From Nitrososphaerota archaeon (GTDB lineage Archaea > Thermoproteota > Nitrososphaeria > Nitrososphaerales > CADDZS01), in NCBI GenBank assembly GCA_027886795.1, contig JAPCJU010000001.1, positions 1-37,966 on the forward strand: 37,966 nt of DNA, in the 5' to 3' direction. Made by a program: the position numbers and the translations under genes. Under the pieces are notes generated by a model. It was not told the origin of the DNA and searched no databases. It saw only the letters and a list, made by a program, of their open reading frames with translations. This document shows, piece by piece, positions 9,116 to 34,048 of the stretch (the stretch's first letter is position 1; every line of letters begins with the position of its first letter).

Positions 9116-9192
9116 TCAGGTCTTGCCCTAATAGTCCACGGCTTGTTGAGGTTACTCAAATGTTATCTAAGAGCACTTCTCTCTAACAAGTC

Positions 9193-9351
9193 ATGAGAAT
9201 CGCACAATCTCAGATGTGTAACATAAACTGTGTTGCTGCAAACTGTGGACCACCCTGTCTAATCGAATGCATAGTATTCCCGCCAGGCTGTATTGCCTGT
9301 CTCTTAATCGCATGTCCTTTTGCGGCTCTACTGTGCTGCCTCTTTGGTTAA
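9193..9351 (+). CDS. unannotated small Cys-rich hydrophobic peptide (52 aa)
   Basis: ATG 9193 to TAA 9349-9351 reads MRIAQSQMCNINCVAANCGPPCLIECIVFPPGCIACLLIACPFAALLCCLFG. It has 10 Cys, is on the same strand as its neighbours, and ends 6 nt before the next ATG. An in-frame stop at 9184-9186 fixes the maximal ORF. Confidence 0.45.
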   Translation: MRIAQSQMCNINCVAANCGPPCLIECIVFPPGCIACLLIACPFAALLCCLFG

Positions 9352-9357
9352 ACAAAA

Positions 9358-10644
9358 ATGCCAGAGACCGATAACCTTGCCGAAAAGACGATGGAAGTCT
9401 TCGAAGAAACTACAGGTAGCACACACGGATATACCAGCGTAACCGGCTACGCTGGTCTCCCAATTTTTTTTAGTTACATTCTAATACCAAATTCTGGTCA
9501 TTATTTGGCATCACATCCTGAAAGCGGACCAAACACTGGTTGCAAGATTGTTACGGCGTCAGACAAAGACGTTAGGATAAGATCGTTTCCTTTAGAGCTT
9601 ACAGAAAATCAAGATCATTTAGAAGAACAGGGGTTTCTGCAAAGTGAGCTAACAGATCTTCTGGAAATAATCACTTCGTTCAGTTTTCAGAAAGAGATTT
9701 CTCAAATAAAGGTCGATTCACGGTTTGATCTGGATGTTAGGTATTCCATTTCATCTAATTCCGACGGAAGACTCTCTCGAATCCCGCGATATTTCCTCAG
9801 GACAGAGATCTTCGCCGAAGACAAATTTAGCAAAAAGGGCGCAACAAGGAGTGTAAACATGGGTTGCTCCTTCGATTTCTCAATTCTCAAGTCTGGATTG
9901 CAAGCGCGCATGATCGATGCATCCGATGATGCTTCCGCTATGCTCAAAACAATCAAGCCTAATCTCGGATCCTGGCCAACGATATTCGATAATGAGCTAT
10001 CTGGTTTCTTCCTTCATTATGGTTTATCGCATTACGCCGAATCATATCCTTCAAGACCTCTAGGTACAACCACTGAACAGGAAAAGCCCGCTAGTGTCGA
10101 GGTCTGTGATGAGCCGCGCTTGCCTCTTTCATATGGATACTATGATTTCGATGATGAATCAAACGATTCGGAAAATCAGGTTCTGTACAATAATGAACAA
10201 TTCAAACAGGTTTTCACAGGCCAGCCCGAAATCTGGGGGACGGATATTCCATCGAACGGACATGCGAGATGTTCAAAATATTGGTTAGATACGCATTTGA
10301 GATCTTCCAATACGGTTGTGAAAGCCGGGGAAGCAACTATTGAAGAGATGCTGGTAGGTCCTGGTGTTTATGCGAAAGGATTGAGACAACTTACCATGGA
10401 TGAAAGGGGCGACTTCACTCTTTACCCTGAGGCTGCATTTATTGTACGCAATGGCGCCGTTCAGCAAGGCTTGGGAGCCTTCTCTTTGCAAGGAAACATA
10501 TTTGATTCACTAAGCGATGTCAAGCTCCTAAGTTGCGATTCGAAAATATTCTCTGCGTATTGTCCGTTTAACTGCAATGACATGGATTCCTGCCCCTCAA
10601 GTGTTTCATCACCAGCTTTATTGTTCCTGGAGCAGAAGGCATGA
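9358..10644 (+). CDS. TldD/PmbA-family protein, pair 2 (TldD-like position, metal site altered)
   Basis: ELSGFFLHYGLSHYAES lines up with EVSGTLAHELGHIFEAD of pair 1. H-Y-G-L-S-H at 10015-10032 lacks the Glu. Family-like C-terminus (FIVRNGAVQQGLGAFSLQGNIFD). Confidence 0.7.
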   Translation: MPETDNLAEKTMEVFEETTGSTHGYTSVTGYAGLPIFFSYILIPNSGHYLASHPESGPNTGCKIVTASDKDVRIRSFPLELTENQDHLEEQGFLQSELTDLLEIITSFSFQKEISQIKVDSRFDLDVRYSISSNSDGRLSRIPRYFLRTEIFAEDKFSKKGATRSVNMGCSFDFSILKSGLQARMIDASDDASAMLKTIKPNLGSWPTIFDNELSGFFLHYGLSHYAESYPSRPLGTTTEQEKPASVEVCDEPRLPLSYGYYDFDDESNDSENQVLYNNEQFKQVFTGQPEIWGTDIPSNGHARCSKYWLDTHLRSSNTVVKAGEATIEEMLVGPGVYAKGLRQLTMDERGDFTLYPEAAFIVRNGAVQQGLGAFSLQGNIFDSLSDVKLLSCDSKIFSAYCPFNCNDMDSCPSSVSSPALLFLEQKA

Positions 10645-12065
10645 GCGCAACGACAATCAACTCGGATGATCTGATTCGAGATATTGCAAACATAAGTTGT
10701 GGTCAATATGAGCTATTTTTTTCAGAGACACGAATAAGGGAGTTTTCCTTCGATAAGGAAAATCAGATCCCATATAGGTCGAAAGAAATTGTTGCATCTG
10801 GAACTTCTATTTCTGTTTTAGAGGATGGAGCAGGAGGGTACGCCTCGATCGGAGGTAGCCAGATTCGTTGCAACGTGTCGGGGCTTGTCAGAATGGCTCT
10901 TTCCAGCGCACACATCAGCAAGAACCATACGTCATCTCAAATTCAATACAACATGAGATCGACTGACTATGAGATGTTCCCTACAAGAACGGGAAAATTT
11001 ACAGATCATGAAAGCTTTTCAGAAGATCTGGAAAACACCGATCTGGAATCCGCCTCTAGCTTGATCAAAAACATTCTAAGTTTAAGAAAACAAGAGACTC
11101 CGAAAATATTCGGAAAGCTTCAAATCATAAGTGATGAGAGAAGGATTGTCAATTCGGGGGGCGGAGATTTTTCAAGATCTTCTAACCACTTCGTTATTCG
11201 GGTAAGCCAGAAGCTACCCAGTTCAGAATTTGAGAACGCTTACTCGATGGGCAGAGAACTCGACTTTGATAGAATTTCGAAAATTTTTGATACGTTTGAA
11301 AACTCCAAAAATTCAGAGGGATTTCGTAATGCGCCGAGCGGAGTTATGGACATAGTGTTGAGTCAGGCCGCTTTTTCGGCGATAATATTGGAGAGCTTTT
11401 TTAGGTATATGCGAATTATGCTAAGAGAAGCTGGAACAGTTACGGACCCTAGGGGTGAGCTAGTTTCAGATCCAGCTCTCAGTATAACCGTTGATCCGCT
11501 ATTGCTTGCGGGACTTTGCTCACGAAAATGGGATGATCATGGATGCGATTGTATCCCAAAGCAAGTAGTGTCGCGAGGAATTCTAAAGGATTTCATATCA
11601 GATCATGTTACTTCTTCATATAGAGGCATCGCCTGCAGCGGGAATGGGTTCCGATCGAATTGTCTTCCAAAGACAATGATGTCAAATATTGACCTCCCTT
11701 TTCTATCAGCTGCACTTGTCAGTCCGACTAATATTATCGTTTCATCGGAGAACGTGTCTGAAAACGTGGTACAGAATGTCCAGGAAGGAGTTTTCATATC
11801 ATCCGTTAGCGAGCCATTTGCGAGATTCGGGAAAACCGTGTTTCGGTGCTATGGTTCACGAAGAATAAAACAAGGCTCCCTTGAAGAAAGAGTGAATCAA
11901 ACATTCTTGATTTTTCCCGACATGCTCGCACCACTTCAGAGAATAACTATGGCTACGAAATCCACATCAGGTTTTCAGGTAATTTGCCCTGAAGTCCTAA
12001 TGGAAAAAGTCGAAATAAGATCGGACATCCAACCTGAACCCTGTTCAATGCCTTGCACAATTTAG
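10641..12065 (+). CDS. PmbA/TldE-like protein, pair 2
   Basis: ATGA start/stop overlap with the upstream gene (10641-10644). Contains GNGFRSNCLPK ... SPTNIIVSS ... EGVFISSV ... RRIKQGSLEERV, a PmbA-like C-terminal half. No HExxH. Confidence 0.7.
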   Translation: MSATTINSDDLIRDIANISCGQYELFFSETRIREFSFDKENQIPYRSKEIVASGTSISVLEDGAGGYASIGGSQIRCNVSGLVRMALSSAHISKNHTSSQIQYNMRSTDYEMFPTRTGKFTDHESFSEDLENTDLESASSLIKNILSLRKQETPKIFGKLQIISDERRIVNSGGGDFSRSSNHFVIRVSQKLPSSEFENAYSMGRELDFDRISKIFDTFENSKNSEGFRNAPSGVMDIVLSQAAFSAIILESFFRYMRIMLREAGTVTDPRGELVSDPALSITVDPLLLAGLCSRKWDDHGCDCIPKQVVSRGILKDFISDHVTSSYRGIACSGNGFRSNCLPKTMMSNIDLPFLSAALVSPTNIIVSSENVSENVVQNVQEGVFISSVSEPFARFGKTVFRCYGSRRIKQGSLEERVNQTFLIFPDMLAPLQRITMATKSTSGFQVICPEVLMEKVEIRSDIQPEPCSMPCTI

Positions 12066-12120: not shown

Positions 12121-13524
12121 TCATCCTGTTGAGAGGATTGCTTTTGTCAACCTCCGCTTCTTCTCGGTCGCAAGATGATGTATCAATTCGCAGTAGGTAG
12201 GATGCGGAAAAGGAAAATGCAAAAGGTCTCGAACCTTGATCTTCGACTTTATTGCAAAAGCCATGGCTGTCAAGACTTCTGATGCGTCAGGACAGACAAT
12301 GTGAACTCCCAAGATGGTATCTTCAACAGGATCTAAGACAAATCTCGCTAGTCCTAGAACATTCTCTCTTATCTGAGCCTTTGCGCAAGAAGAGATGGGT
12401 ATGTCAACTATTTCAAAAGGCCGTCCGCTTTGCTTAGCCGTATGAGTCGTGAGACCCACTGCAGCAAATTCTGGATAAGTTAGAATCTTTTTTGGAATCA
12501 ACTCGTAATCCATGGCGGTTTCTTCCCCCATACAATTTAGCGATGCCACTATTCCTTGTTCTGAAGCTATATTGGCCGACCAGCTTTTCCCTGTGACCTC
12601 ACCTGCGGCATAGATATTGTCCAAACTCGTCTGCATTTTTCGATTTGTCTGAATCAGTCCATCTTCAATTTTGACTCCAATTTTCGGCAAGTCCAAATTA
12701 GAGTAATTTGGCTTTCTGGAACTGGTGATTATCTTGTCGAAAGAGAACAACCTATGTTGATCAAACCGATCGAGTAATTCGACCTGTTTCGATTCTTTGT
12801 CCCTTGATATATCGAGAATTTGCGAATCGTTGATGAATTTGATACCTCTAGACTGCAGAAATAAAATCAGATAGTCAATTATATCTCCCTCCTCATTAGA
12901 TAGAATCGAATTCTCAAGCTTGATCACTGTGACATCGATTCCTAGTTCGTTAAGAGCGAACGCCAGTTCAACTTCTGAGAAGCCACATTCGATTAACAAA
13001 ACTGACCGAGGCAATTTCTCCCATTCCAACAAAACACCAAAGTTGTCCACCAAATTGTTGTTCGAAAATCGATCGTTGTTAGGAACTGACCCGGTGCATA
13101 TGATAGCATGACGGAATCGGATGGTTCTCCAACCGTCATTCCCTTCGACAGAAACTTCATTCCTGGAAAAAAATTGGGCTTCTCCATAAACAATATCGAT
13201 CTTTTCGTCCGCAAGACTCTTTCGAACCATTTCTGATAATGTCGGAACAAGTGTCGCACTAACAAAATGTGTGAGCTTTAGGAACTCCTCCTCTTTTTTT
13301 ATAGAAGGCGTTAAATTCGGAAATGATTTGCGCATTTCGACTAACTGCCTCGAAAAGAGGCATAATTTGGTCAGGGGGTAACAACCAGTGTTCAAGCATT
13401 GTCCTCCCAAGCGGCTCTTTTCGATGAGGACAATTCGAGCGCCGTATGCGGACGCCGTCGAAGCTGCAGACGTACCAGCAGGACCTCCTCCAAGAATAGC
13501 GAGATCGTAGATCAAGGTTTCCAC
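12121..13524 (-). CDS. pyridine nucleotide-disulfide oxidoreductase, dihydrolipoamide-dehydrogenase-like
   Basis: FAD fold LGGGPAGTSAA, redox-active C-x4-C (GGQCLNTGCYP), second dinucleotide fold, C-terminal dimerisation motif FPHPTYCE. Confidence 0.85.
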   Translation of the reverse strand: METLIYDLAILGGGPAGTSAASTASAYGARIVLIEKSRLGGQCLNTGCYPLTKLCLFSRQLVEMRKSFPNLTPSIKKEEEFLKLTHFVSATLVPTLSEMVRKSLADEKIDIVYGEAQFFSRNEVSVEGNDGWRTIRFRHAIICTGSVPNNDRFSNNNLVDNFGVLLEWEKLPRSVLLIECGFSEVELAFALNELGIDVTVIKLENSILSNEEGDIIDYLILFLQSRGIKFINDSQILDISRDKESKQVELLDRFDQHRLFSFDKIITSSRKPNYSNLDLPKIGVKIEDGLIQTNRKMQTSLDNIYAAGEVTGKSWSANIASEQGIVASLNCMGEETAMDYELIPKKILTYPEFAAVGLTTHTAKQSGRPFEIVDIPISSCAKAQIRENVLGLARFVLDPVEDTILGVHIVCPDASEVLTAMAFAIKSKIKVRDLLHFPFPHPTYCELIHHLATEKKRRLTKAILSTG

Positions 13525-16847: not shown

Positions 16848-17321
16848 TCACTTCTTGAGCCTTAACATTATGAGGCGGCTACTTCCATCTGAGTAATAAT
16901 CTCTGACAATCCTTTTTTTCCTGAAACCATGTCTGGTGTAAAAAGAAACAAGATACGGTTTGTCATCCTTCACATCAAGGATGTGTCCCTTCCTCGAATG
17001 AAGAGCAAGAACACGATTAAGAAGTCTCGTGCCAAGACCAGATCTTCGGAATTTTGAATCCACAAATAATGAACTGACATATATTCGTCCATCCCTTGTC
17101 GGCATAGCCATTGCGCCACCAATGATCTTTTTTTTGTAAAGAGCTTTGAAAGCAAAACAATAGTCAATTACGGGACGCCAATAGTATAGGCTGACCTTGG
17201 AGAATTGCATTTCGAAGCATTTCGCCTCGAGCTTCAAGAAGGGAACGGCATCTTCGATTTTTGCCTTTTCGATTCTTGTGTTTGAATTCTTGGACTTTTC
17301 TTTTCTATTTCGAGAGACCAA
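16848..17321 (-). CDS. GNAT-family N-acetyltransferase
   Basis: Acetyl-CoA-binding motif A-like LFVDSKFRRSGLGTRLLNRVL followed by FYTRHGF. Confidence 0.8.
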   Translation of the reverse strand: MVSRNRKEKSKNSNTRIEKAKIEDAVPFLKLEAKCFEMQFSKVSLYYWRPVIDYCFAFKALYKKKIIGGAMAMPTRDGRIYVSSLFVDSKFRRSGLGTRLLNRVLALHSRKGHILDVKDDKPYLVSFYTRHGFRKKRIVRDYYSDGSSRLIMLRLKK

Positions 17322-17476: not shown

Positions 17477-20014
17477 GTGGGCTCATTGTCTAGGGCTAAG
17501 ATTGAAGTTCAGCAAATATTCGTCGACAGAGAAGAGCCTCTTTCCTCTCTTTCCGAGGTATTCGATTCCATTCGAAATTTAGGAAAGGATCGTATTGTCA
17601 CGGTTTATGGAGAGCCTGGAGTCGGAAAGACGACTCTGATTAACAATTTCCTAAAGGAACTTGAATCAAAACAAGAGCTCGTAATCCTGAGAACTGTTGG
17701 TAGAGTATTCGCAAGTAGCCCTTACTCAGCTCTGTCTGAAATGATCTCCTCTCTGAAGCGATCAAAACATACGATCGAACAGAGCAAACAAATCGCCACA
17801 ATAATTCTGAATCTTGCTAAGCTTGTTCCGGCATTTGAACCCGCTATTTCATTAGTCTCAGATGTGGCATCCCGTGTATTTAGTCTGACCCAAGCGGACA
17901 AGGAAATAATCGGCAATTCAATGTACGTCAATAATTTGTTTGTTTCCCTTTTCGAAAAATTATCGTCGAAGAATACTGTCGTAGCTTTCTTTGATGATAT
18001 CCAGTGGTTTGACGGCTCCTCTCTTGAATCGCTCTGTTTTCTTTTGGAGAAGGTTTCGCGTATACAGTGCATGATTGTTCTGAGCATCAGGAAGGGACAT
18101 CACTCATCCGAAAGAGAAGAGGCTAATACAGAACTTCTTAATGCTGTTCTTTCCAGAATCGATGAGAACAATCGACTTTCCGTTAATCTAGAGCCCTTTA
18201 CTCTATACTCATCTACAGAGCTCACCACTATTCTTGCAAGAGACAAATTGACTAAAGAAGAGATACGATCTTTGGCTTCGCGGACGGGCGGAAACCCTTA
18301 CTTCATAAATTGCGCAATCAAGGGACTTCAAACTATTCATGAATCCGACAATTCCTTTGCTAGTGATAGGAGAGCGCTGCTTGCTCCAAAAAGCGTCTCC
18401 GACCCGATTCAGACTTTGCTCCTGCACATTAAGCGCGAAGATTTGTCGATGCGTGTTCTTCTTGACTATGCGGCAATTCTGGGAGACAGGTTCAAGTCAA
18501 AAGATCTCTCCGAACTTATGAATGAGGATCAATTGAAACTGATACACCATCTTGAGGAACTTGAAACGGTCTATGGCATCATGAAGAACAATAAGCGGGA
18601 CGGAAGCTATGAATTCGATCATTCGATAACCAGAGAAGTGATTCTTGATTCTTTGAAAGACGCGGCACGAGGAATCCACGAGAAGGCCGCGAAAATGTAT
18701 GAAGAAAGAGGTTCGAATCCCGAACTTGTCGCCGTTCATTATGATTCTGCAGACAGACCGAAATTGGCTCTCAAGTTCTATGTCGAAGCTGCGAAGAATG
18801 CCACGACTAATTTTTCATTCGCAGATTCGACAAACTATTGGAAGAGGGGGCTTGAGTTAGCAAATTCCCAACCAGGATTTACCGTGGCGGATCGAACTTT
18901 ACTTTCTTTACAACTTGGATCAAGTCAGTTCTCCACCGGTCAGTTTGAAGAATCATACGCCATTTCTCATTCAATCGTACAAGAGATTGAGAGTGGAATT
19001 GAAATTTCCAAGCAATTAGAAGCAGACACCAGGTTGTTGCTTGGGAAGAGTTGTCGATACATCGGTACAAAGAGAGCAGCATCCGAAGGAATCCCAAATT
19101 TACTAATGGCTTGTCAAATACTTGAAGAATTGGACGAAAAAGAGCGACTGGGCGCTTCTTATTCTACTCTGTCCACAGCTCTGGATCATTTTGCGTTTCA
19201 CGAAGAAGCTCTTGAGTATTTTGGAAGAGCTCAGAAAGTCTTCAATGAGGTCAACGACAGAGTAGGACTGGCGACCCTTGGACGAAAGTCAGGAATGTTC
19301 TATGACTCAAGGAGAACCATAGGCTTCCTGGATTCGGCCATTCAGACATTCAAACAGTTAGGGGCGACCATTGAAGTGGCGAGATGTCTTAACAATCAAG
19401 GAGCAGAAAGATTCTACATCGGGGACTTTGGTTCGTCAAAGAAGAGTCTGCTTGAGTCAATAAAACTGTACCGAGAAATCGATTCGTATGAAATTGATAT
19501 CCCTCTCAACAACTTGGGCTTAGTTTACATCCAGCTTGACGATTTTCCAAGTGCAAGGTCATTCTTGACTGAAGCATTTGAAAGATCAAGCGAGGTTTTC
19601 AATCGAATCTGCAGCTCGATCAATATCTCTGTCCTGGATAAGAAAGAGAACAAACTCGAGGATTCAGTTCAGCGCATGCAGCAACTTGCGTCCCTCGTCG
19701 AGGAATCAGGAGAGCCATTGGTGCAAGACTATTTTGGTTTCAATATGGCATCCATCCTTCTTTCAAAAGAACTAGCAAAGACCGCACTTGAATGGCTTGA
19801 GAAGTATCAGTTGAATGTTTGGAAGGATGACAACGAGCTTGCGCTTGCAAAAAGATTGACGCTTAAGGCAAGGATCCTTAAGGAACTAGGAACGCAAAAG
19901 GCTGAAGTTGGAGAGATTGTTGAGCAAGCGCGGGAGATTTTCAAAACCATGAGACCTCAAAAATGGTTCTACCTAATCGACTATTACCCCTGCGACCTTC
20001 ACGTACTGGATTGA
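17477..20014 (+). CDS. STAND-type P-loop NTPase (AAA_16-like) with C-terminal TPR array
   Basis: Walker A YGEPGVGKTT near the N-terminus and Walker B-like VAFFDDIQWFD. The C-terminal ~400 aa are repetitive helical TPR-like (A..Y...A......). GTG start. Confidence 0.8.
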   Translation: MGSLSRAKIEVQQIFVDREEPLSSLSEVFDSIRNLGKDRIVTVYGEPGVGKTTLINNFLKELESKQELVILRTVGRVFASSPYSALSEMISSLKRSKHTIEQSKQIATIILNLAKLVPAFEPAISLVSDVASRVFSLTQADKEIIGNSMYVNNLFVSLFEKLSSKNTVVAFFDDIQWFDGSSLESLCFLLEKVSRIQCMIVLSIRKGHHSSEREEANTELLNAVLSRIDENNRLSVNLEPFTLYSSTELTTILARDKLTKEEIRSLASRTGGNPYFINCAIKGLQTIHESDNSFASDRRALLAPKSVSDPIQTLLLHIKREDLSMRVLLDYAAILGDRFKSKDLSELMNEDQLKLIHHLEELETVYGIMKNNKRDGSYEFDHSITREVILDSLKDAARGIHEKAAKMYEERGSNPELVAVHYDSADRPKLALKFYVEAAKNATTNFSFADSTNYWKRGLELANSQPGFTVADRTLLSLQLGSSQFSTGQFEESYAISHSIVQEIESGIEISKQLEADTRLLLGKSCRYIGTKRAASEGIPNLLMACQILEELDEKERLGASYSTLSTALDHFAFHEEALEYFGRAQKVFNEVNDRVGLATLGRKSGMFYDSRRTIGFLDSAIQTFKQLGATIEVARCLNNQGAERFYIGDFGSSKKSLLESIKLYREIDSYEIDIPLNNLGLVYIQLDDFPSARSFLTEAFERSSEVFNRICSSINISVLDKKENKLEDSVQRMQQLASLVEESGEPLVQDYFGFNMASILLSKELAKTALEWLEKYQLNVWKDDNELALAKRLTLKARILKELGTQKAEVGEIVEQAREIFKTMRPQKWFYLIDYYPCDLHVLD

Positions 20015-21069
20015 GCAGTGTTTGTCCTCTTTACTGACTGCCTGATCAGGGCACTGTCCAGGATCATCTCTATCATTTTCTTATATCCGATACCTGATTT
20101 TGTGGCAATTTCGTTGAAGCTACTGTGTTTTCCGAGAAAAGGATAGGGGTTTATTTCGAGAAAATATGTATTCCCTTCATGGTCTACTCGCTGGTCAACC
20201 CTGCCGAAGTCCTTGCATCCTAGCAGGTTATACAGTTTCAGAGCACTCTCTTCGGCCTTTGATACAAATTGGTCGCGCAAAGGGTATCTGAATCCATAGC
20301 CATCATGCCTTACTATGTCAGAGGTCAGAAAGCGGTTTTTAAGTACAAGATCTTCGTTTAGTGTTAATCCTACGACACCAAAAGCGTTTGGTGGATAAGT
20401 CCCGATTATGGGGATGTCGACTTCCCTGCCTAGAATGAAATTCTCAACTAGAACTGGCTGTTTGTATGCTCTCAAGAGGTACTCAATTGTTCTTTGCATG
20501 TGAGTTCTGTCATAAGCCACCGAATCATCGCGAATGCCCTTACTACTTCCTTCATAACAAAGTTTTGCAATTACAGGGTATTTTCGAGGCTTACAATTTT
20601 TAATTTCGTCAAAATTGTTCACCACCCTAAACTCAGGTGTCCTGATTCCATATTGCTTGGCGAGTACTTTCGTATGCCATTTGTTTAGGGCTATGGCGAG
20701 TGTGTAGCTATCTGAACCTACGTATGGTATTCTTGCAAGCTCAAGGATTGATGGTATCTGTGCTTCTCTCCCACGTCCATAATATCCTTCAGCGATGTTG
20801 AATATTATGTCAACCGAATCTTCCACGACTCGAATATCATCTAGCAACTTCCTCCCGCTTCCAATGAGCATTATAGTATGTCCTAAATCTTCCAATGCAT
20901 GCGCAATGTCATCAATGGCAGTGGAGACTTCGAATTCCACGTCCCAATCCTCTGGCTCAGGGCTCGAAAATTTGAAGTCATTCCTTGTGTCATATGTCAA
21001 ACCGACCGTAAGGGAAGCCGGTACTTGTGCAAACATCTTCTCTTGAATGTGACTTACGGTGGTATGCAA
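19999..21069 (-). CDS. D-alanine--D-alanine ligase-like ATP-grasp enzyme
   Basis: DIIFNIAEGYYGRGREAQIPSILELARIPYVGS ... KWHTKVLAKQYGIRTPEF ... YPVIAKLCYEGSSKGI ... YFLEINPYP follows the Ddl-family order of motifs. Confidence 0.75.
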   Translation of the reverse strand: MHTTVSHIQEKMFAQVPASLTVGLTYDTRNDFKFSSPEPEDWDVEFEVSTAIDDIAHALEDLGHTIMLIGSGRKLLDDIRVVEDSVDIIFNIAEGYYGRGREAQIPSILELARIPYVGSDSYTLAIALNKWHTKVLAKQYGIRTPEFRVVNNFDEIKNCKPRKYPVIAKLCYEGSSKGIRDDSVAYDRTHMQRTIEYLLRAYKQPVLVENFILGREVDIPIIGTYPPNAFGVVGLTLNEDLVLKNRFLTSDIVRHDGYGFRYPLRDQFVSKAEESALKLYNLLGCKDFGRVDQRVDHEGNTYFLEINPYPFLGKHSSFNEIATKSGIGYKKMIEMILDSALIRQSVKRTNTAQSST

Positions 21070-22769: not shown

Positions 22770-25031
22770 ATGAAAAAACTGTTGGTTATCGCTGGTCCCG
22801 AAGACGATGCAATAGCACGTAAGATTCATCGAAACATTTCTCTTTCAACTCTTGGACTCACGATTGATCGAATTCAACTAGGGCATGATGAAAGTCTTTC
22901 CAGCACACTTTTGCTTGATAAAGATTCGTCGGTACTTCTTCCAATTATTTCGCTTGATACTCTTGCATATAGATGGGCCACTGTGGATTTGCTGACATTT
23001 GTCTCAAACATTGACTATGAGGTATTTCCGCTAATTTACACCGACAAAGATTGGGAGACACTTCAAGAGAAAATTCCTGAAGAATTCAGATTGGCAATAA
23101 ACTCCTGTCAATATATTTTGTTTCGTAATGATCGTTTTGAAGATTCGATAACCGAGCTTCTTCGGATTCTTTCTCCGCAGATGGATTCCGAAGCCGTTTA
23201 TTCGGAAGCTCAATCCAGCGATAACCCGTTTAGACGTGTCAGAATGGAGCATTATGAAAGTCTCCAGCTGCTAGCTCAGAACTTTGCAGAACCAGAAAGG
23301 GCCCGTTACGACAAGATAATGGAGGTTAAACCCACTATCCTTCAGGGAGGACGCGGTTGCGGCAAATCAATGATCCTCAAGTCTATGCAAGCAAGCGTCG
23401 CGGTATATCGTCGTGCTACCGCGAAATCTTTCAAAGATTTGAAGATCGGTTATTTCGGCATCTATTGTAGAATGACTCAGGGCTCTTTTTCAACTCAAGA
23501 GGGGAATATCGAAAAGCATATTGACCAAGATGCGGCGACTCGTTTATTTTCGACAGAATTGATCTTACAATTAGCTCAATCACTAATCGAAGAAGTTCGG
23601 GTATGCTCCACGCGAAACATTCTTGAGATAACCCGAACACAAGAGACTAAGATTGCAGTTTCAGTCGCGAATATTCTGTCACCAGGGGACAGCGCGGCCG
23701 ATTTTCAAACTCTAGAACAGTTAATTCAGACGTTCCTCAGAGCAATAAACGACTATCTCGGAAGCAAGATATTGGGCGATGCCCCAGTTTACGAAGGAAT
23801 ACATCTTTCCAAAGAACAATTAAGACAAATCTGTAAGGCGATCCTTGAAAATATTCCTGAGATTTCTGATTGTACTGTGTATTTTCTTTTGGACGAGTAC
23901 GAGAATTTACTACCGTTTCAAAAAATCGTTCTCAACACTCTAATCAAATGGTCCGCGAGCAGAATTTTCACCATAAAGATTGCAGCAAAGCACACGGGCT
24001 TCAGAGTAACTAAGACAACCGAAGGCCAAGAAGTGGAAGAGCCTGCGGATTACACCTTGATTGACCTTGATTATGATGTAGGAAGAAAAGATCAACGGGC
24101 AGCGTATATGCGCTTGCTCAAGCAAGTCTGCGAGAAAGTCCTGAAGCATGAAGGCATAAGCGTGCCCATCGACAAGCTCTTAGTAAGGGGATCAATAGCG
24201 CCTGGTATTGCAGTCAAGGAAATTGAACAGGAGGTATCTGTTATGGCTCAAGAAATTCAGGGGAAAAAATGGATCGATATCCCGGAAAAACAGCGCGATG
24301 AATATCTTACCAAATTCAGAATGGCCGCAGCGTATCGAATTCTGGGTCGGCGACAAAGACAATTTTCGGGGTTTTATGAATTTGCACTTCTATCTTCAGG
24401 AATAATAAGAACTTTCTTAGAATTATGCGGAATGTCCTATTATTTTGCGAGAGCCCGTCGTGAGAGCACTCAAGATGCAAAGGATTCACCTATCTCCCAA
24501 GTTCATCAGTCTCAAGCGGTATTTGCGCTGTCATCCTATTACTTAGCAACACTCCGAAAAAATATTTCTGATTATGGATTTGACATCCAGCAACTCGTTA
24601 TCGATTTTGGTGATATATTCCGCCACAGGCTGTTGTATCACCCCAGTCAGCCGGAAGCATCGCGGATATCAATAACCGATCCCCAAAATTTTACTTTGGC
24701 TAACATGAAAATAGCTGATAATGTAATCAATTGTGCGCTTATGCACAGCGTAATGTTTTCTCCAAGCAGGGGGCTACCGGGAAATCGTCCTTCAAACTCC
24801 AAAGATATACAGCCTACTGATTTTATCCTGAATAGAATATTTGCTCCCGTTCTCAGATATTCTCCTAGGGCTCGATGGAGGATTAACGTGAAAGTTTCTG
24901 ATATTGAGGGGCTTCTTGATAAGAAACAAAGGGGGAAAATCAAATCTGATCTTATACAAAATCTTTCAGGAGAACGTTATAGGGAGAGATTTCAGAGATC
25001 CTTTGATGACTTGCAGACAAAGCTCCAATAG
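22770..25031 (+). CDS. TIR-like domain fused to an ORC/Cdc6- or STAND-like P-loop NTPase
   Basis: Residues 1-135 follow the TIR pattern: KLLVIAGPEDD, then SSVLLPIISLDTLAYRWATVDLL, then VFPLIY. Walker A GGRGCGKS lies at 23346-23369, Walker B-like VYFLLDEYEN follows, and the C-terminal half is helical. Confidence 0.65.
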   Translation: MKKLLVIAGPEDDAIARKIHRNISLSTLGLTIDRIQLGHDESLSSTLLLDKDSSVLLPIISLDTLAYRWATVDLLTFVSNIDYEVFPLIYTDKDWETLQEKIPEEFRLAINSCQYILFRNDRFEDSITELLRILSPQMDSEAVYSEAQSSDNPFRRVRMEHYESLQLLAQNFAEPERARYDKIMEVKPTILQGGRGCGKSMILKSMQASVAVYRRATAKSFKDLKIGYFGIYCRMTQGSFSTQEGNIEKHIDQDAATRLFSTELILQLAQSLIEEVRVCSTRNILEITRTQETKIAVSVANILSPGDSAADFQTLEQLIQTFLRAINDYLGSKILGDAPVYEGIHLSKEQLRQICKAILENIPEISDCTVYFLLDEYENLLPFQKIVLNTLIKWSASRIFTIKIAAKHTGFRVTKTTEGQEVEEPADYTLIDLDYDVGRKDQRAAYMRLLKQVCEKVLKHEGISVPIDKLLVRGSIAPGIAVKEIEQEVSVMAQEIQGKKWIDIPEKQRDEYLTKFRMAAAYRILGRRQRQFSGFYEFALLSSGIIRTFLELCGMSYYFARARRESTQDAKDSPISQVHQSQAVFALSSYYLATLRKNISDYGFDIQQLVIDFGDIFRHRLLYHPSQPEASRISITDPQNFTLANMKIADNVINCALMHSVMFSPSRGLPGNRPSNSKDIQPTDFILNRIFAPVLRYSPRARWRINVKVSDIEGLLDKKQRGKIKSDLIQNLSGERYRERFQRSFDDLQTKLQ

Positions 25032-25048
25032 ACATTTCTGGTGATAGG

Positions 25049-26023
25049 TTGGTTCTAACGGAACTTAGATCGGTCGAGCCATTCAGAAAGGGGCAGCCTG
25101 ATAATGTATTCGTGTGTTGTGCTAATTCTGAAGAGAGGTGCCTCGGGGCTGTAAACCGCTTTTCCAACTATAATTTTTCGAATGCATTTGTCTTTTATTA
25201 TGATGAAATAGAATTAGAAGCAATTTCTAACCTCAAACTTCTAGAATCTAGGTTGTCCTTGTTAGGGCCAACTAGAACGATACGTACAGCGGAAGATGAT
25301 CCAAGAGATGGTATTGCAGAGCTCTACATGGCTTTGAAAAGTCTCTTGCCAGATCCTACGGGTAATATCATCACGATCGATGTTTCGGCTTTTTCTAAAA
25401 GACATATTCTTTTGTTGTTGAAGAATTTGGATAAACTAGGTTTTTGGGGGAGTCTCAGAATAGTTTACTCTGAGCCTGAGCGATACAGTTCCAATCTGTA
25501 TTTGCCAATGTCAGTAGGGATTAAGAGGATCGACGTTGTGCCAGGATTTGTCAATCTTCAATCACTGGGGAAACCTCTCTTGCTCATAATTATGCTAGGC
25601 TATGAAGGAGATAGAGCAACTGCGCTTGTGCATAATATTGATCCCAATGAAACCCTTTTGGCGATACCCAGGCCTGCCTATAGGAAAGAATGGGAGGGAC
25701 GAACAGAAGAAATGAACAAGAATTTGATTAAACTCATTGGCCGGGAAAACGTAATTGGACTTCATTCTTTGGACTCCGATGAAGTCGCAATATCTCTCCG
25801 AGAACTACTCGTTTCAGGCAAGATAAATATGCTGTCAGAGAAAAATTGTTGTATTGTTCCGTTAGGCACGAAACCTCAAACTGTTGGTCTGTATTATTTT
25901 TGGAGAGAGCATCAAGGACAGTTCGAGATTCAGTATGCCTCCCCCTTTCATGTGAATGAAGAATTCTTTTCAAGCGGCGTCGGGAAAACATGGCTGCTTC
26001 ATCAGCCTTCAAATCCTGAATGA
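25049..26023 (+). CDS. uncharacterised partner protein, two Rossmann-like halves (CARF-like?)
   Basis: TTG start 17 nt after the upstream stop, preceded by SD-like GGTGAT (25040-25045). Strand-loop motifs IITIDVSAFSKRHILLLL and CCIVPLGTKPQTVGLYYF recall the D.T.G.K / GGTK loops of CARF-type sensor domains. No effector motif recognised. Confidence 0.45.
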   Translation: MVLTELRSVEPFRKGQPDNVFVCCANSEERCLGAVNRFSNYNFSNAFVFYYDEIELEAISNLKLLESRLSLLGPTRTIRTAEDDPRDGIAELYMALKSLLPDPTGNIITIDVSAFSKRHILLLLKNLDKLGFWGSLRIVYSEPERYSSNLYLPMSVGIKRIDVVPGFVNLQSLGKPLLLIIMLGYEGDRATALVHNIDPNETLLAIPRPAYRKEWEGRTEEMNKNLIKLIGRENVIGLHSLDSDEVAISLRELLVSGKINMLSEKNCCIVPLGTKPQTVGLYYFWREHQGQFEIQYASPFHVNEEFFSSGVGKTWLLHQPSNPE

Positions 26024-26267: not shown

Positions 26268-26960
26268 TTGTCATTATCGTATGGTAACACAGAGATTGAA
26301 ACTCCGCTTCATCCTTGGTTACCACGTGGGATTAAGACAGACAGAATCCTTCGAATCTTGCTAAACAACCCAGACGGAGCGCTTACTAGATACAGAATAT
26401 CGATATTAGCCGAAGTTCAACATATTCAAGTGAGCTTACTCCTCAAACAGTTCGAATCAAAGGGCCTGGTCAAAGGCACAAGAGTAATTGATTACCGAGG
26501 ACTAATGACCGAGTGGGCAAAACGCAAAGTCAAATTTCAATCTCAACGCTACATGCACAAAGGAATTCTGGATTTTCTAAGAAGAACTAATCTGAGGTAT
26601 GCATTAACCACGTATCAAGCTGAGACACTGGTAAATCATTATCTCTTTCCAACGAAGATAGAGATGTATATTGACCGCCTCGATTTCGAAAAGTGGCATG
26701 ACGCACTGGTCGCATCACAAGCGATGGTAGGCGGTGGAAATGTCGTACTCAGACTGTATGATGGGGGAGTCTTTTACAAATCCTTTGACGTGAACGGCTA
26801 TCATGTCGTTTCAATTCCACAGATAATTGTGGATCTTATCAGAGAGGGCGGCGTAGCCTACCAAGCAGCTGATATGTTATTGGGAAAGCAACAGACCGCC
26901 CAAGCATCCAAAAACATAGGAGGAAAACGTCCGCATGTCTCAGATGTACAGCGATCATGA
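26268..26960 (+). CDS. AbiEi-like antitoxin/transcriptional regulator (wHTH + C-terminal domain)
   Basis: wHTH-like ILRILLNNPDGALTRYRISILAEVQHIQVSLLLKQFESKGLV. C-terminal GYHVVSIPQIIVDLIREGG matches the AbiEi pattern (G..vvs.eqtl.DL). Overlaps the downstream NTase gene by 26 nt. Confidence 0.55.
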   Translation: MSLSYGNTEIETPLHPWLPRGIKTDRILRILLNNPDGALTRYRISILAEVQHIQVSLLLKQFESKGLVKGTRVIDYRGLMTEWAKRKVKFQSQRYMHKGILDFLRRTNLRYALTTYQAETLVNHYLFPTKIEMYIDRLDFEKWHDALVASQAMVGGGNVVLRLYDGGVFYKSFDVNGYHVVSIPQIIVDLIREGGVAYQAADMLLGKQQTAQASKNIGGKRPHVSDVQRS

Positions 26961-27732
26961 GACTGCATACTCCAGACGATATCTTAGCACTCTTCTTAGA
27001 GCGGTATCTCAACCCCCTTGTCTTATGGGAGGCTGGGCCGTCCAACTTCAATTGAATGATCAATTCAACAGTTCGAAGGGACGGGAATATCTGGGCTCAA
27101 GAGACATAGATCTTGGGTTTCATCTCGACCCAAACTGGACCGCAAAAGAGTTCCAAACTTCCGATTTCTACAGAACAATCAAAGCAATCAAGAAACTGGG
27201 ATTTGAAGAGCAATCCTTCAGATTCGTAAAGCACTATCACTGGGATTCGAATCAGGAGCTTAGCATTGAAGAGGCAAGAGAACTTGATTCATACCAAATG
27301 TTTGATCTCTTTGTTGACCTCGCTGTAGACACTGCCGATCCAAGAAGAATCGATTTAGTTGGGTCAAGTGTCATTGACGAGCCCTTGCTCAAGACGGTCT
27401 TCCTTGGAAAAGAGCGAATATCAGCGAAGTTCTATGGGACTGATATAATCATGCCAACTCCCAGATTGTTGATCGAAATGAAATTGAAGTCATTTCCGGA
27501 TCGAACTCAAGATGATAAGAAAACAAAAGATCTCGCTGATATTTGCGCGCTGATGTTGTATACGCAGCCAGAACCCTTGACATTAACAGCTAATCAAGAC
27601 ACTAGATTGCTAAAGGAGAATTTCGAAAGAGGAATGGAAACTCTTGCTGAGGAGGAATGGGACAGAGTCGGAATGATGCTAGATGAGAGTAGAGCGGATC
27701 TAATTAGACTTCTCAGATTAAACATAGTTTGA
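26935..27732 (+). CDS. AbiEii/AbiGii-like nucleotidyltransferase toxin
   Basis: GGWAVQLQLN ... GSRDIDLGF matches the NTase motif (GG.al...R.t.DiDl). Size is about 265 aa. Paired with an upstream wHTH gene. Confidence 0.6.
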   Translation: MSQMYSDHETAYSRRYLSTLLRAVSQPPCLMGGWAVQLQLNDQFNSSKGREYLGSRDIDLGFHLDPNWTAKEFQTSDFYRTIKAIKKLGFEEQSFRFVKHYHWDSNQELSIEEARELDSYQMFDLFVDLAVDTADPRRIDLVGSSVIDEPLLKTVFLGKERISAKFYGTDIIMPTPRLLIEMKLKSFPDRTQDDKKTKDLADICALMLYTQPEPLTLTANQDTRLLKENFERGMETLAEEEWDRVGMMLDESRADLIRLLRLNIV

Positions 27733-27992: not shown

Positions 27993-28481
27993 CTAAGTCA
28001 ATGGCTGTCTCCTGGCGGCGGTCTTCCCGCGAGGGATTATTGACCTAATGAGACACTGAGTCATTTCCTTTCCAATGACACAACTTGCATCATCCTGACC
28101 CTCATTCATTCTGTGAGCGACTGTAATTGCATCCGTATTGGAAAATTTGGCAACGCCAGACGTGGGATGAGTATGCATTGAGATTTGTCTATGTTTTATT
28201 GGACACACTCTCCCTAGAGGAAGAGTTGTTTCAGTCGCCGACCCAACCTTGCCTAAAATCAATTTGTTCACAGAGCCTGTTCCCGGATCTACACAAGCGT
28301 AGGCACTGATTTCCCTACCTATATTCTCGCTCGCATCATAAAGCTCCTCAAATGATTCCATGAACCCCTTCGCGCAAGGCCCGGTAATCTCCAAGCCTTT
28401 CACAGTGAATTCTACGCGGCAACTATTTTTTTCGTAACCATTCAACATGACCATTGCATAGAGAATATCTCTAATAAGCAT
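27993..28481 (-). CDS. JAB/MPN-domain metalloprotease
   Basis: ISMHTHPTSGVAKFSNTD reads as a JAMM-type H-x-H ... S-x-x-D motif, with 8 rather than 7 residues in between. Confidence 0.55.
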   Translation of the reverse strand: MLIRDILYAMVMLNGYEKNSCRVEFTVKGLEITGPCAKGFMESFEELYDASENIGREISAYACVDPGTGSVNKLILGKVGSATETTLPLGRVCPIKHRQISMHTHPTSGVAKFSNTDAITVAHRMNEGQDDASCVIGKEMTQCLIRSIIPRGKTAARRQPLT

Positions 28482-32641: not shown

Positions 32642-34048
32642 TCAAGCAAACTTCCCTTCCTCAATTCTTTTCAGCTTCTCCAGGAAGGCGGGATCTTTCA
32701 GCCAGGTGAGCTCTTTCAGGAACGCATAATCTTTCTGCTGCTCTCTCATTTCCGCCAGATCCTTATCGACTTGAGTCTGGTTCTTGAGCTTCGACTCAAG
32801 CTCTTGTATTTTCTTCTCCATCGAGTGCGAGACCCTTTCCTCATTGCAAATCAGGGCCTCGACCTTCAAGTACTGATCGCGAAAGTGTTCCGGTGAGGTC
32901 CAGGGTGTCTTGTCGTAACCCTCATCGTCGATGTTGTGCCCTATGAAGAAATCCGCGACGGGCCCATCGACCCCAGCTACCCTCGCGCTCGTCTTGAATG
33001 TGTCCCTGAACTCGTGCGCGTGTATACGGTAAATCCTCGTCCCAGGCACATGTTCCTGGACGCCCGAGCGAAAAGAAGATTCCCTGACGGTCTTGTTGAC
33101 GTTCTTTTCCGTAACCGGAGTCCTAATGTTCGTGATGAAAATCGGATCAGAAATCAGCCTTCCATTTACGGTCCTCACCTTAATGTCGGAGAGCATGATC
33201 TGTTTTCTGACCGGTATCCAGTGTTGCAGGCATTTGAGGGCCTTAGCCGGAAGGAAGTTGAAGTAGTCGTACTGCGTCTTGGAGCGGGTCATGTCTATCC
33301 TTATGGGAGCTCTGGAAAGATCCCAGAACTCCGGGTCCGAGCCGCCGAGCTGCTTTAGGATCTGCGGCCAAGCGTAGTAGTTGAAGCACTCTACAAAAGT
33401 ACTCTCGTCCAGGCCGAGCGTCGCGCATATCGCCATGATCGCCTTGTCTCTTATCGGGGTCCTCCCGTCCTCGATGATCGTCCAGTACTCCGCCGGTCTT
33501 ACGAAGCTCGAAGCCCTTGCGGTGCCCGAGTTGTCTATCATCTCGCGGCTGAAGACGACCTTCTCTGAGGGGAGCTCGCAGCGGTTCTTCGCGTATAGAG
33601 CTCTAACGGCGACGACTATCGCGTCCTTGTAGCCCCTGGACCCCTTGAACGAATTCACGTAGCTCGTCAGGAGGTCGAGATGGCGGAAGCGTCTCTCCTC
33701 CTGGTCGCCGCCCTTTCTCTTCACATCCTCGATGAGCGCAGTCGCGTCGGAAAAGTAGCCGTTCTCTCGGAGCCAGCAGATGTAATTCCAGTTCCTTCTC
33801 AGGCGGTGGCCCCGCGTTTTCTTGGAGGCGGTCTTTGAGATCATTACCTGGACGTATTGGTTTTTCTCGAATTCGTCCAACCCTTCCGTCCGGTGAAAAG
33901 TCTCCCTTCTGTAATCGAGGGCTCCGGTGAATTTTCTGATCTCGAATAGGTAGCTACCGATGTAAGAGGGCTTGCGCCCTAAAGCTTCTGCCACCTCGTT
34001 TGTAGTGAGCTCCTTCCTTCCGCTGTACCCGCTTTTCAGTACGTCCAT
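32642..34048 (-). CDS. tyrosine recombinase/integrase
   Basis: Catalytic region RIHAHEFRDTFKTSARVAGVDGPVADFFIGHNIDDEGYDK follows H-x-x-R ... H ... Y. Lies 158 nt from the 3' end of a co-oriented tRNA gene. Visibly higher G+C than its surroundings. Confidence 0.85.
   Translation of the reverse strand: MDVLKSGYSGRKELTTNEVAEALGRKPSYIGSYLFEIRKFTGALDYRRETFHRTEGLDEFEKNQYVQVMISKTASKKTRGHRLRRNWNYICWLRENGYFSDATALIEDVKRKGGDQEERRFRHLDLLTSYVNSFKGSRGYKDAIVVAVRALYAKNRCELPSEKVVFSREMIDNSGTARASSFVRPAEYWTIIEDGRTPIRDKAIMAICATLGLDESTFVECFNYYAWPQILKQLGGSDPEFWDLSRAPIRIDMTRSKTQYDYFNFLPAKALKCLQHWIPVRKQIMLSDIKVRTVNGRLISDPIFITNIRTPVTEKNVNKTVRESSFRSGVQEHVPGTRIYRIHAHEFRDTFKTSARVAGVDGPVADFFIGHNIDDEGYDKTPWTSPEHFRDQYLKVEALICNEERVSHSMEKKIQELESKLKNQTQVDKDLAEMREQQKDYAFLKELTWLKDPAFLEKLKRIEEGKFA

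Follow-up and report, generated by a model that had tools for sequence, protein, structure and literature searches.

The stretch of DNA analysed here, referred to as the window, comprises 37,966 nucleotides from a Nitrososphaerota archaeon and carries a pair of adjacent genes, gene 1 and gene 2, the products of which are a TIR-like domain fused to an ORC-CDC6-like ATPase and a tandem CARF-like protein (Table 1). In related genomes the unit normally has three genes, with a DNA methyltransferase (MTase) gene after the CARF gene, and the window lacks this third gene. We regard the locus as probably a derived copy, without methylase, of a defence-type mobile cassette that is widespread. Both genes are counted as real because they have close homologues in the database (best E values of 8e-242 for gene 1 and 2e-124 for gene 2); the nearest named relative of gene 1, from Hodarchaeales, is 47% identical. 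The two open reading frames (ORFs) are full length, with 0 frameshifts and 0 internal stops. Gene 1 ends with TAG at 25029-25031, leaving a 17-nt spacer before the TTG start of gene 2. An earlier note, made from the sequence alone, had described the two ORFs, the TTG start, the 17-nt gap and the GGTGAT element, and all of these are exact on checking the sequence. The operon structure that it proposed is borne out as well, and the same gene order is found in 53 of the 58 loci described below.

Table 1. Coordinates of the gene pair and of its domains and motifs in the window
Feature	Position	Strand	Remarks
Gene 1	22770..25031	+	753 aa, ATG start; diverged TIR-like N-domain fused to ORC-CDC6-like AAA+ ATPase
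TIR-derived N-domain, residues 1-135	22770..23174	+	TIR fold and homology from AlphaFold2 (AF2)/Foldseek and family profile; probably catalytically impaired
Asp73 codon	22986..22988	+	Position of the W-x-x-x-E catalytic Glu (here YRWATVDL); from alignment of homologues
ORC-CDC6-like AAA+ module, with helical and winged-helix-like C-terminal half	23223..24881	+	PF24389 envelope, residues 152-704
Walker A GGRGCGKS	23346..23369	+	From the translation; kept across loci
Walker B FLLDEYEN	23883..23906	+	Residues 372-379; kept across loci
Shine-Dalgarno-like GGTGAT	25040..25045	+	3 nt 5' of gene 2 TTG; read from sequence, putative role
Gene 2	25049..26023	+	324 aa, TTG start; stand-alone tandem CARF-like protein, 'CARF6' family
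N-terminal CARF-like Rossmann domain, about residues 16-165	25094..25543	+	Motifs sFEERCLG and ITIDVSAFSKRH
C-terminal CARF-like Rossmann domain, about residues 175-320	25571..26008	+	Motifs LGYEGDRA and PLGTKPQ

The greater part of gene 1 belongs to the Pfam family PF24389 (E 2.4e-71, 241.6 bits with a cut-off of 27), which is matched over profile positions 1-568 of 571. The motifs GGRGCGKS and LLDEYEN are intact and are conserved in 50+ loci, and the Walker B residues L373, L374, D375, E376, E378 and N379 are invariant in the family alignment. Regarding the earlier reading of this region, the Walker motifs had been placed exactly, and the assignment to an ORC-like P-loop NTPase agrees with the PF24389 match and with Foldseek matches to ORC/Cdc6 structures at a probability of 1.0. 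The NPFRRV motif had been put within a linker and is instead the invariant first motif of PF24389, in which N152, P153, F154 and R158 do not vary. The best full-length Foldseek match of the AF2 model of gene 1 (predicted local distance difference test, pLDDT, 84.5) is RADAR RdrA (E 2.3e-4), with low TM-scores of 0.15-0.2 for the RdrA matches. The likeness to ORC/Cdc6 and to the ring-forming RdrA is one of fold only; the protein may assemble into rings or other oligomers in an ATP-dependent manner and may bind DNA. Pfam found no STAND, NACHT or NB-ARC model and no repeats in gene 1, the C-terminal half of which belongs to PF24389.

The first ~135 residues of gene 1 are of a different kind. Whether this N-domain models as a TIR fold, a check proposed with the earlier note, was examined with AF2 and Foldseek, and the model matches the TIR domains of PdTIR and TcpB (probability 1.0, TM-score on the target 0.63-0.70, root-mean-square deviation 3.4-4.0 A). 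Most full-length homologues of gene 1 at 36-45% identity carry PF01582/PF13676 (TIR, TIR_2) together with PF24389, and the family profile matches TIR sequences in the PDB (TLR2/15, Cat1, AbTIR) with E values of 1e-11 to 4e-13, the match to Cat1 being at E 9e-13. We take the N-domain to be TIR-derived because its orthologues carry the Pfam domain and the family profile recovers TIR domains of the PDB. The TIR pattern first recognised by eye therefore stands at the level of fold and homology, but it does not extend to a Pfam TIR match or to the catalytic Glu in the window copy itself: the two Pfam TIR models give no match to it at E<=1, either with residues 1-147 or with the whole protein. The position of the catalytic Glu is held by Asp73, whereas the same column is Glu in 26 of the 28 other aligned homologues and in all MTase-linked loci with an alignable TIR domain. 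The beta-A motif reads L-V-I-A-G-P versus the canonical F-I-T-Y-S-H, and the PGDS loop reads GHDES. In the subclade that unites the window with its two nearest relatives, N-domain identity is 22-32% versus 55-60% for the ATPase parts, while canonical pairs show 54-68% for the TIR domain versus 44-72% for the ATPase, so that there the TIR is conserved as well as or better than the ATPase. The N-domain of the window is diverging at about twice the rate of its ATPase. Taken from these alignments, the TIR domain of the window copy is probably catalytically impaired.

Gene 2 is matched by 11 PADLOC models named 'CARF6--CARF_CARF_CARF' (best PDLC01911, E 6.3e-33, residues 16-317). Its AF2 model (pLDDT 93.6, predicted TM-score 0.93) consists of two tandem alpha/beta Rossmann-like domains, and Foldseek aligns ~140-150 residues of it with the CARF domains of TtCsm6 (T. 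thermophilus Csm6), Cam1, Cad1 and Can2 at probabilities of 0.97-1.0, the E values being only 2e-4 to 1e-2. With the whole chain, Foldseek retrieves generic double-Rossmann proteins only. The CARF6 models and the CARF matches of the AF2 model support the CARF-type double Rossmann partner that had been proposed from the sequence. Pfam and NCBIfam give no match to the window gene 2. Among its relatives, the N-terminal half matches CARF_Card1, Csa3_N and HFX_2341_N, and the C-terminal half matches CARF_Card1 and HFX_2341_N; the CARF_Card1 matches are above the cut-off in P0037 and P0067, and those of Csa3_N and HFX_2341_N are below it. A search of the PDB with the CARF-like profile yielded no sequence homologue, and alignment of the N-half with the C-half of the family by hhalign was not significant (E 0.053).

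Across an alignment of 30 bacterial and archaeal sequences the gene 2 family has 36 invariant positions. Most notable are four motifs, two in the first half (sFEERCLG and DISTFTKRH) and two in the second (LGYEGDRA and PLGTKPQ). In the N-half E28, R30, G33 and D111 are invariant and K117 and H119 nearly so (at least 90%), and in the C-half G184-R189, P271 and G273-Q277 are invariant. That each half has invariant E/R and T-K loop motifs is suggestive only, but it would be compatible with binding of a nucleotide or a cyclic oligoadenylate. No effector domain was found in gene 2, either in the AF2 model or by Pfam searches of its relatives. The family is large, with 3059 representatives of 50% clusters at E<=1e-3. 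Searches of PLSDB plasmids, GenBank phages and IMG/VR revealed no homologues of gene 2, and Foldseek against viral models gave generic Rossmann matches only.

The conserved adjacency of the two families across archaea and bacteria, which had been set as a test in the earlier note, was examined in 58 loci obtained from a scan of one genome per GTDB species, and the pair passes it strongly. An ORC-CDC6-like gene lies directly upstream of the CARF gene on the same strand in 53 of them, mostly overlapping it, and about 40 of these 53 ATPases have the TIR N-domain. The pairing is kept even where the CARF homologue is only 23-24% identical (L058, L059). The bacterial loci come from Acidobacteriota, Chloroflexota, Planctomycetota, Verrucomicrobiota, Spirochaetia, Nitrospirota, Latescibacterota and Brocadiia, and the archaeal ones from Methanoregula, Methanomassiliicoccales, Bathyarchaeia, Nitrosopumilaceae and Thermococci. 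The defence-type context that had been suggested for the pair is also found, as integrases and defence genes often lie near homologous loci: a BglII restriction endonuclease, GmrSD, HEPN, patatin, a CAP12-type TIR protein, a RecD2-like helicase and a caspase-like protein with WD40 repeats. In the annotated neighbourhoods of eight relatives there are no Pfam families of cas or CD-NTase genes.

This distribution also bears on the possibility that gene 1 is a housekeeping archaeal Orc1/Cdc6 replication initiator and gene 2 its accessory protein. Foldseek places the ATPase with ORC/Cdc6 with full probability; on the other hand, none of the orc1/cdc6 models of NCBIfam matches gene 1, the protein belongs to the separate family PF24389 and is fused to a TIR domain, and the pair has a patchy distribution in both bacteria and archaea, within islands that also hold integrases and defence genes. 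We consider the replication role effectively refuted.

Thymidylate synthase and dCTP deaminase genes adjoin several cassettes, and the thyA copies are canonical. The cassette island lies between a complete thyA and a thyA fragment in L003/L064 (5561-5998 and 12256-13065, with integrases nearby in L064), in L004 (1284-1775 and 6577-7398) and in L018, L046 and L068. A role of thyA in DNA hypermodification was considered and rejected, in view of the canonical copies and of the partial duplicates on the flanks of the island. For the same reasons thyA appears to be a recurrent integration site of a cassette-carrying element and not a component of the system; flanking partial duplications are what is expected of an integrated element.

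In annotated contigs of relatives, a gene of about 420 aa encoding an N6_N4_Mtase (PF01555) overlaps the end of the CARF gene. A hidden Markov model (HMM) built from three of these MTases was used to search the loci, of which 55 had enough flanking DNA to be assessed. An MTase gene is adjacent to the CARF gene in 49 of these 55, directly downstream of it with the one exception of L051, in which it precedes the ATPase gene. The MTase aligns over its full length with PADLOC type II models (E 1e-36 to 1e-49), and its motifs DPFCGSG and SPPY are intact; the SPPY motif favours N4-cytosine methylation. One database protein of 643 aa (P0235) appears to consist of the N6_N4 MTase joined to the C-terminal part of a CARF-like protein. 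This may be a genuine Rosetta-stone fusion; since the two genes overlap, a gene call that ran through a frameshift could also have produced it.

The effector position is more variable. In L074-L076, from Burkholderia cenocepacia and another genome, the order is PRTase-CE (PF24390), ORC-CDC6-like ATPase, CARF-like protein and N6_Mtase (PF02384). The CARF-like protein of these loci, of ~300 aa, is distantly homologous to gene 2 (E 4e-19 and 9e-16) and has the motifs YxEPxxY, LGxE and PxGTKP in common with it. Two further arrangements were observed. In L051 (5119-7980), L053 (5114-7951) and L054 (3-2792) the ATPase has no N-terminal TIR domain, and its C-terminus is extended by ~330 aa, in which a Cys-rich segment and two weak CAP12/Pycsar-TIR-like motifs (EITE..N.IFE.G.A.G) are seen; we read this extension as an alternative placement of a TIR-like effector. 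In L041 (5398-7974), L046 (5506-7977) and L052 (5576-8017) the TIR domain is replaced by an N-terminal domain of ~240 aa that has no Pfam match and begins with a hydrophobic segment followed by long helices; a membrane or coiled-coil effector is possible. Because the TIR domain is exchanged for PRTase-CE or other domains and the methylase family is exchanged as well, we take the ORC-like ATPase and the tandem CARF protein to be the conserved core, and the effector and the methylase family to be interchangeable, as judged from gene content.

The same interchangeability argues for the TIR domain as an effector and not as a generator of signals, and it weighs on a Thoeris-like reading of the pair, according to which activation of the ATPase would lead the TIR domain to make a messenger derived from nicotinamide adenine dinucleotide (NAD), to be sensed by the CARF-like partner. 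TIR domains do generate signals of the cyclic ADP-ribose type in Thoeris, and the TIR domain of a canonical relative weakly matches ThsB (PADLOC, E 1e-4 to 6e-3) and ThcB4 (NCBIfam, E 5e-4). However, the CARF-like protein has no effector domain with which to execute a response, PRTase-CE and other domains hold the TIR position in relatives, and the window has neither the catalytic Glu nor a ThsA-like SIR2 or Macro protein. The replacement of Glu by Asp73, the loss of TIR motifs and the fast evolution of the N-domain make a TIR-derived signal sensed by the Rossmann-like partner, an idea raised in the earlier note, unlikely at this locus, and we hold the Thoeris-like reading as a whole to be very improbable.

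The window copy differs from this general pattern. The HMM search found no MTase homologue anywhere in the 38-kb window, and the next genes (26268-27732) are unrelated. Its close relatives L001 and L002 (60% and 51% identical) have no MTase over 5.9 kb downstream, and in L065-L067, also close relatives, the contigs end before the MTase position can be judged. Besides the window, the loci without MTase are L001, L010, L030 and L050; in L030 the ATPase gene is split into two ORFs, and in L050 the TIR domain is barely detectable (E 0.09). At the same time, every residue that does not vary in the two family alignments is kept in the window, among them those of Walker A and B and the 36 CARF positions. 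As the window copy is without the methylase and without the key catalytic residue of its TIR domain, it is atypical and probably a weakened member of the cassette family. Two further genes upstream of the pair are shared by L001 (4477-5664) and L065 (1649-2868) and are absent from the window. Their products, of 174/182 aa at 53% identity and 201/204 aa at 45% identity, have no Pfam match, and they may be extra components of the subclade or mere synteny.

Two alternatives take the same features in opposite directions. The first holds that the two genes are a functional abortive-infection system, a split version of Cat1/TIR-SAVED, in which the CARF protein would bind an alarm nucleotide made elsewhere and drive the assembly of the ATPase-TIR protein, with Asp73 still cleaving NAD+. 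CARF and TIR domains are functionally coupled in solved systems and the family TIR profile recovers Cat1; both window ORFs are intact with all core motifs; and two-gene loci without MTase recur in several lineages (the window, L001, L010, L030 and L050). In addition, the AAA part of the PADLOC CARF6 model CARF_STK_AAA matches gene 1 (E 6.6e-8), and the name of this model suggests that CARF and such an ATPase can share one polypeptide. We nevertheless find this reading unlikely: the window and the annotated neighbourhoods hold no Cas10, CD-NTase, other signal synthase or CRISPR array, the TIR domain has its catalytic Glu replaced and its motifs lost within a fast-diverging N-domain, and no role is left for the methylase found in about 90% of relatives.

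The second alternative is that the locus is a decaying remnant that has lost its methylase, has no current function and is on its way to a pseudogene. The missing methylase and the degenerate TIR domain would fit, as would the split ATPase gene of L030. Against it, both ORFs are full length and keep every family-invariant residue, and loci of the same subclade (L001/L002 and L065-L067 types), at 51-60% identity, keep the pair intact, which points to purifying selection on the ATPase/CARF core. A remnant is accordingly rated as quite improbable.

The interpretation as a derived, methylase-less cassette has its own difficulties. The methylase could be encoded outside the 38-kb window. L001, the closest relative with long flanks, keeps the Glu yet is without a methylase, and the link between loss of the MTase and decay of the TIR domain is therefore a trend over few loci and not a rule. 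Since the change from Glu to Asp retains a carboxylate, residual TIR activity may persist. The TIR fold of the AF2 model was built on an alignment dominated by canonical TIR homologues and is biased to that fold. Neither the window nor the examined neighbourhoods contain a Cas10, a CD-NTase or a CRISPR array that could be the source of a CARF signal. Lastly, the roles of the three proteins were assigned solely from domain identity and gene order. All of these points weigh against the preferred interpretation.

If that interpretation holds, the canonical form of the cassette would work as follows. The methylase would mark self DNA, and the ATPase and the CARF-like protein would form a sensor complex, triggered either by unmodified invader DNA or by a nucleotide ligand in the tandem CARF pocket. 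ATP-dependent oligomerisation would then gather the TIR domains, as in other TIR NADases, NAD+ would be destroyed and the infection would abort. Overall, the canonical cassette would resemble restriction-modification with an abortive output. In the window, the loss of the self-marking methylase most likely went along with attenuation of the NADase; the loss could have been tolerated because the NADase was attenuated, or could have selected for the attenuation. The window copy would act, if at all, via its ATPase/CARF core or via partners encoded elsewhere.

A different reading, offered by analogy, sees in the ATPase/tandem-CARF core a danger sensor linked to methylation. The methylase of the cassette would write a private mark on the host DNA, the CARF pocket would detect marked nucleotides or oligonucleotides freed when a phage degrades the chromosome, and this would switch on the TIR or PRTase effector associated with the ATPase. 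The methylase-less Asp73 subclade, to which the window belongs, would then be no remnant but a neo-functionalised branch whose ligand or output is different. A trigger of a comparable type, m6-dAMP, has been reported for PUA-Cal-HAD (PMC12871103). Taken as a whole, we judge this reading distinctly unlikely.

Regarding the surroundings of the pair, the downstream interval 26268-27732 (+) contains two overlapping ORFs of 230 and 265 aa, the second with a GSRDIDLG nucleotidyltransferase-like motif. Neither matches Pfam, PADLOC, NCBIfam or PHROGs, and they may be an uncatalogued toxin-antitoxin pair of the MNT/AbiEii-like type. The earlier note had described this flank as an AbiE-like toxin-antitoxin module next to a JAB protease, in a block ending at an integrase and a tRNA, and little of that description was recovered. 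The toxin-antitoxin module has the GSRDIDLG motif and no family match in the four libraries, and the protease (27993-28481) has only a weak Prok-JAB match (E 0.17). For the integrase there is a sub-threshold Phage_integrase match (E 7.6e-5, 23 bits with a cut-off of 27.1) at 32642-34048, and no tRNA was detected by ARAGORN or Rfam. The ORF at 32642-34048 (-), of 468 aa, has a weak Phage_integrase and HTH match, and no tRNA or attachment repeat was found with it. It lies in the sole GC-rich kilobase of the window (33001-34000, 54.5% versus about 42%), which suggests a foreign origin.

Upstream of the pair, 17477-20014 (+) encodes an 845-aa STAND-type ATPase with AAA_16, NB-ARC and TPR matches and a match to the ATPase region of the TOMM kinase/cyclase model (E 6e-30); this STAND-TPR protein and gene 1 are the only products of ORFs of at least 600 aa in the window. 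Around it lie genes for a D-Ala-D-Ala-ligase-like ATP-grasp protein (19999-21069, -), a small-molecule O-methyltransferase (PF00891; 21287-22360, +) and a GNAT protein (16848-17321, -). Together these genes could form a second conflict system or a peptide-modification cluster. Further upstream, 6459-12065 (+) holds four PmbA/TldD-family metallopeptidase genes in a row, paralogues that apparently make up two TldD/PmbA-like pairs; genes for an ABC-transporter ATPase and a ParB-like protein lie upstream of them (with 3383-4447). The arrangement is reminiscent of loci for the maturation of peptides (ribosomally synthesized and post-translationally modified peptides or microcins). A dihydrolipoyl-dehydrogenase-like housekeeping gene (12121-13524, -) has no database relative above 33% identity, which indicates that the window comes from a very poorly sampled lineage; a geranylgeranyl-reductase-like gene is also present and, like the Hodarchaeales relative of gene 1, hints at an archaeal origin.

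The pair had been described in the earlier note as not recognisable as any named defence system. Both families prove to be catalogued, as PF24389 and as CARF6 in PADLOC, but no named or tested system corresponding to them was found. On the window genes, PADLOC-DB 2.0 gave the CARF6 models and a weak PtuA match and no named system, NCBIfam release 20 gave a sub-threshold Sll1717 match only, and PHROGs gave nothing. A full-text search of the literature, the coverage of which does not include the 2020 CARF census and the 2023 survey of nucleotide effectors, found no paper that names or tests the cassette. The CARF6 models of PADLOC are, we presume, derived from the 2020 census by Makarova and colleagues, and the name 'PRTase-CE' reportedly goes back to Nicastro, Burroughs, Iyer and Aravind in 2023. 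PF24389, PF24390 and PF24409 are neighbouring Pfam accessions, which suggests a joint definition of the ATPase family and PRTase-CE, and it is likely that the full cassette has been described computationally before.

The reception of cyclic oligoadenylates (cOA), in type III CRISPR and systems related to it, is almost the only role known for CARF domains. The CARF-like subfamily examined here is wired to an ORC-like ATPase, a DNA methylase and interchangeable nucleotide-destroying effectors, with no signal synthase in sight. The ligand of the tandem CARF protein would reveal whether CARF sensing has been recruited to a logic like that of restriction-modification or whether there is a new messenger. 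The value of the window copy is comparative: a natural variant without the methylase and with a Glu-to-Asp TIR domain is useful for asking which parts are essential, and it is a poor first choice for functional tests.

Among the known systems, an Avs/STAND NLR-like receptor was ruled out, since gene 1 has no STAND, NACHT or NB-ARC match and no C-terminal repeats. An ancillary CARF effector of type III CRISPR or CBASS was likewise rejected, as no Cas10, CD-NTase or CRISPR array was seen in the window and no cas or CD-NTase families in the eight annotated neighbourhoods. Thoeris also has a TIR-domain protein in a small defence operon, but in the present pair there is no ThsA effector (SIR2/SLOG or Macro), the TIR domain is fused to an ATPase and the partner is CARF-like; the ThsA and ThsB models of PADLOC do not match the window genes, and weak ThsB/ThcB4 matches occur on the canonical relative only. 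BREX, with BrxC, and Ssp, with SspC, are methylation-based systems that are built on ATPases of the ORC/Cdc6 clade (PMC12839542, PMC10853773). Unlike them, the window pair has no PglZ, BrxA/B/L or Dnd/Ssp components, and its effector is a nucleotide-targeting TIR domain; the PADLOC models of BREX and Ssp do not match gene 1, and the canonical relative matches mad8 weakly (E 0.0011). RdrA of RADAR is similarly an ORC/STAND-like, ring-forming defence ATPase with a partner that acts on nucleotides. However, it is paired with the adenosine deaminase RdrB and has no TIR domain, CARF domain or methylase. Given the low TM-scores, only the general architecture is shared.

Among the nucleotide sensors, Can1 has two CARF domains in one polypeptide (PMC9704534), and gene 2 likewise has two CARF-like Rossmann domains per chain, which could form an intramolecular, pseudo-dimeric ligand site. 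Can1, however, also has nuclease domains and is associated with type III CRISPR, whereas gene 2 has neither an effector domain nor a CRISPR link. Cat1 (named 'CRISPR-associated TIR 1' in the PDB) and TIR-SAVED also couple a CARF or SAVED nucleotide sensor to a TIR NADase, and in TIR-SAVED the NADase is activated by ligand-induced oligomerisation (PMC9704534). In those systems, however, sensor and TIR domain share a single chain that responds to cOA made by Cas10 or a CD-NTase, whereas here the two are on separate proteins, an AAA+ ATPase is placed in between, a methylase is usual in the family and the window copy is without the Glu. The PRTase-CE cassettes (L074-L076) differ in that PRTase-CE is a separate gene and not a fused domain and in that their methylase is of the PF02384 family, while the window has no methylase and a degenerate effector; they are alike in the PF24389 ATPase, the downstream tandem CARF-like homologue, the DNA methylase and an effector directed at nucleotides.

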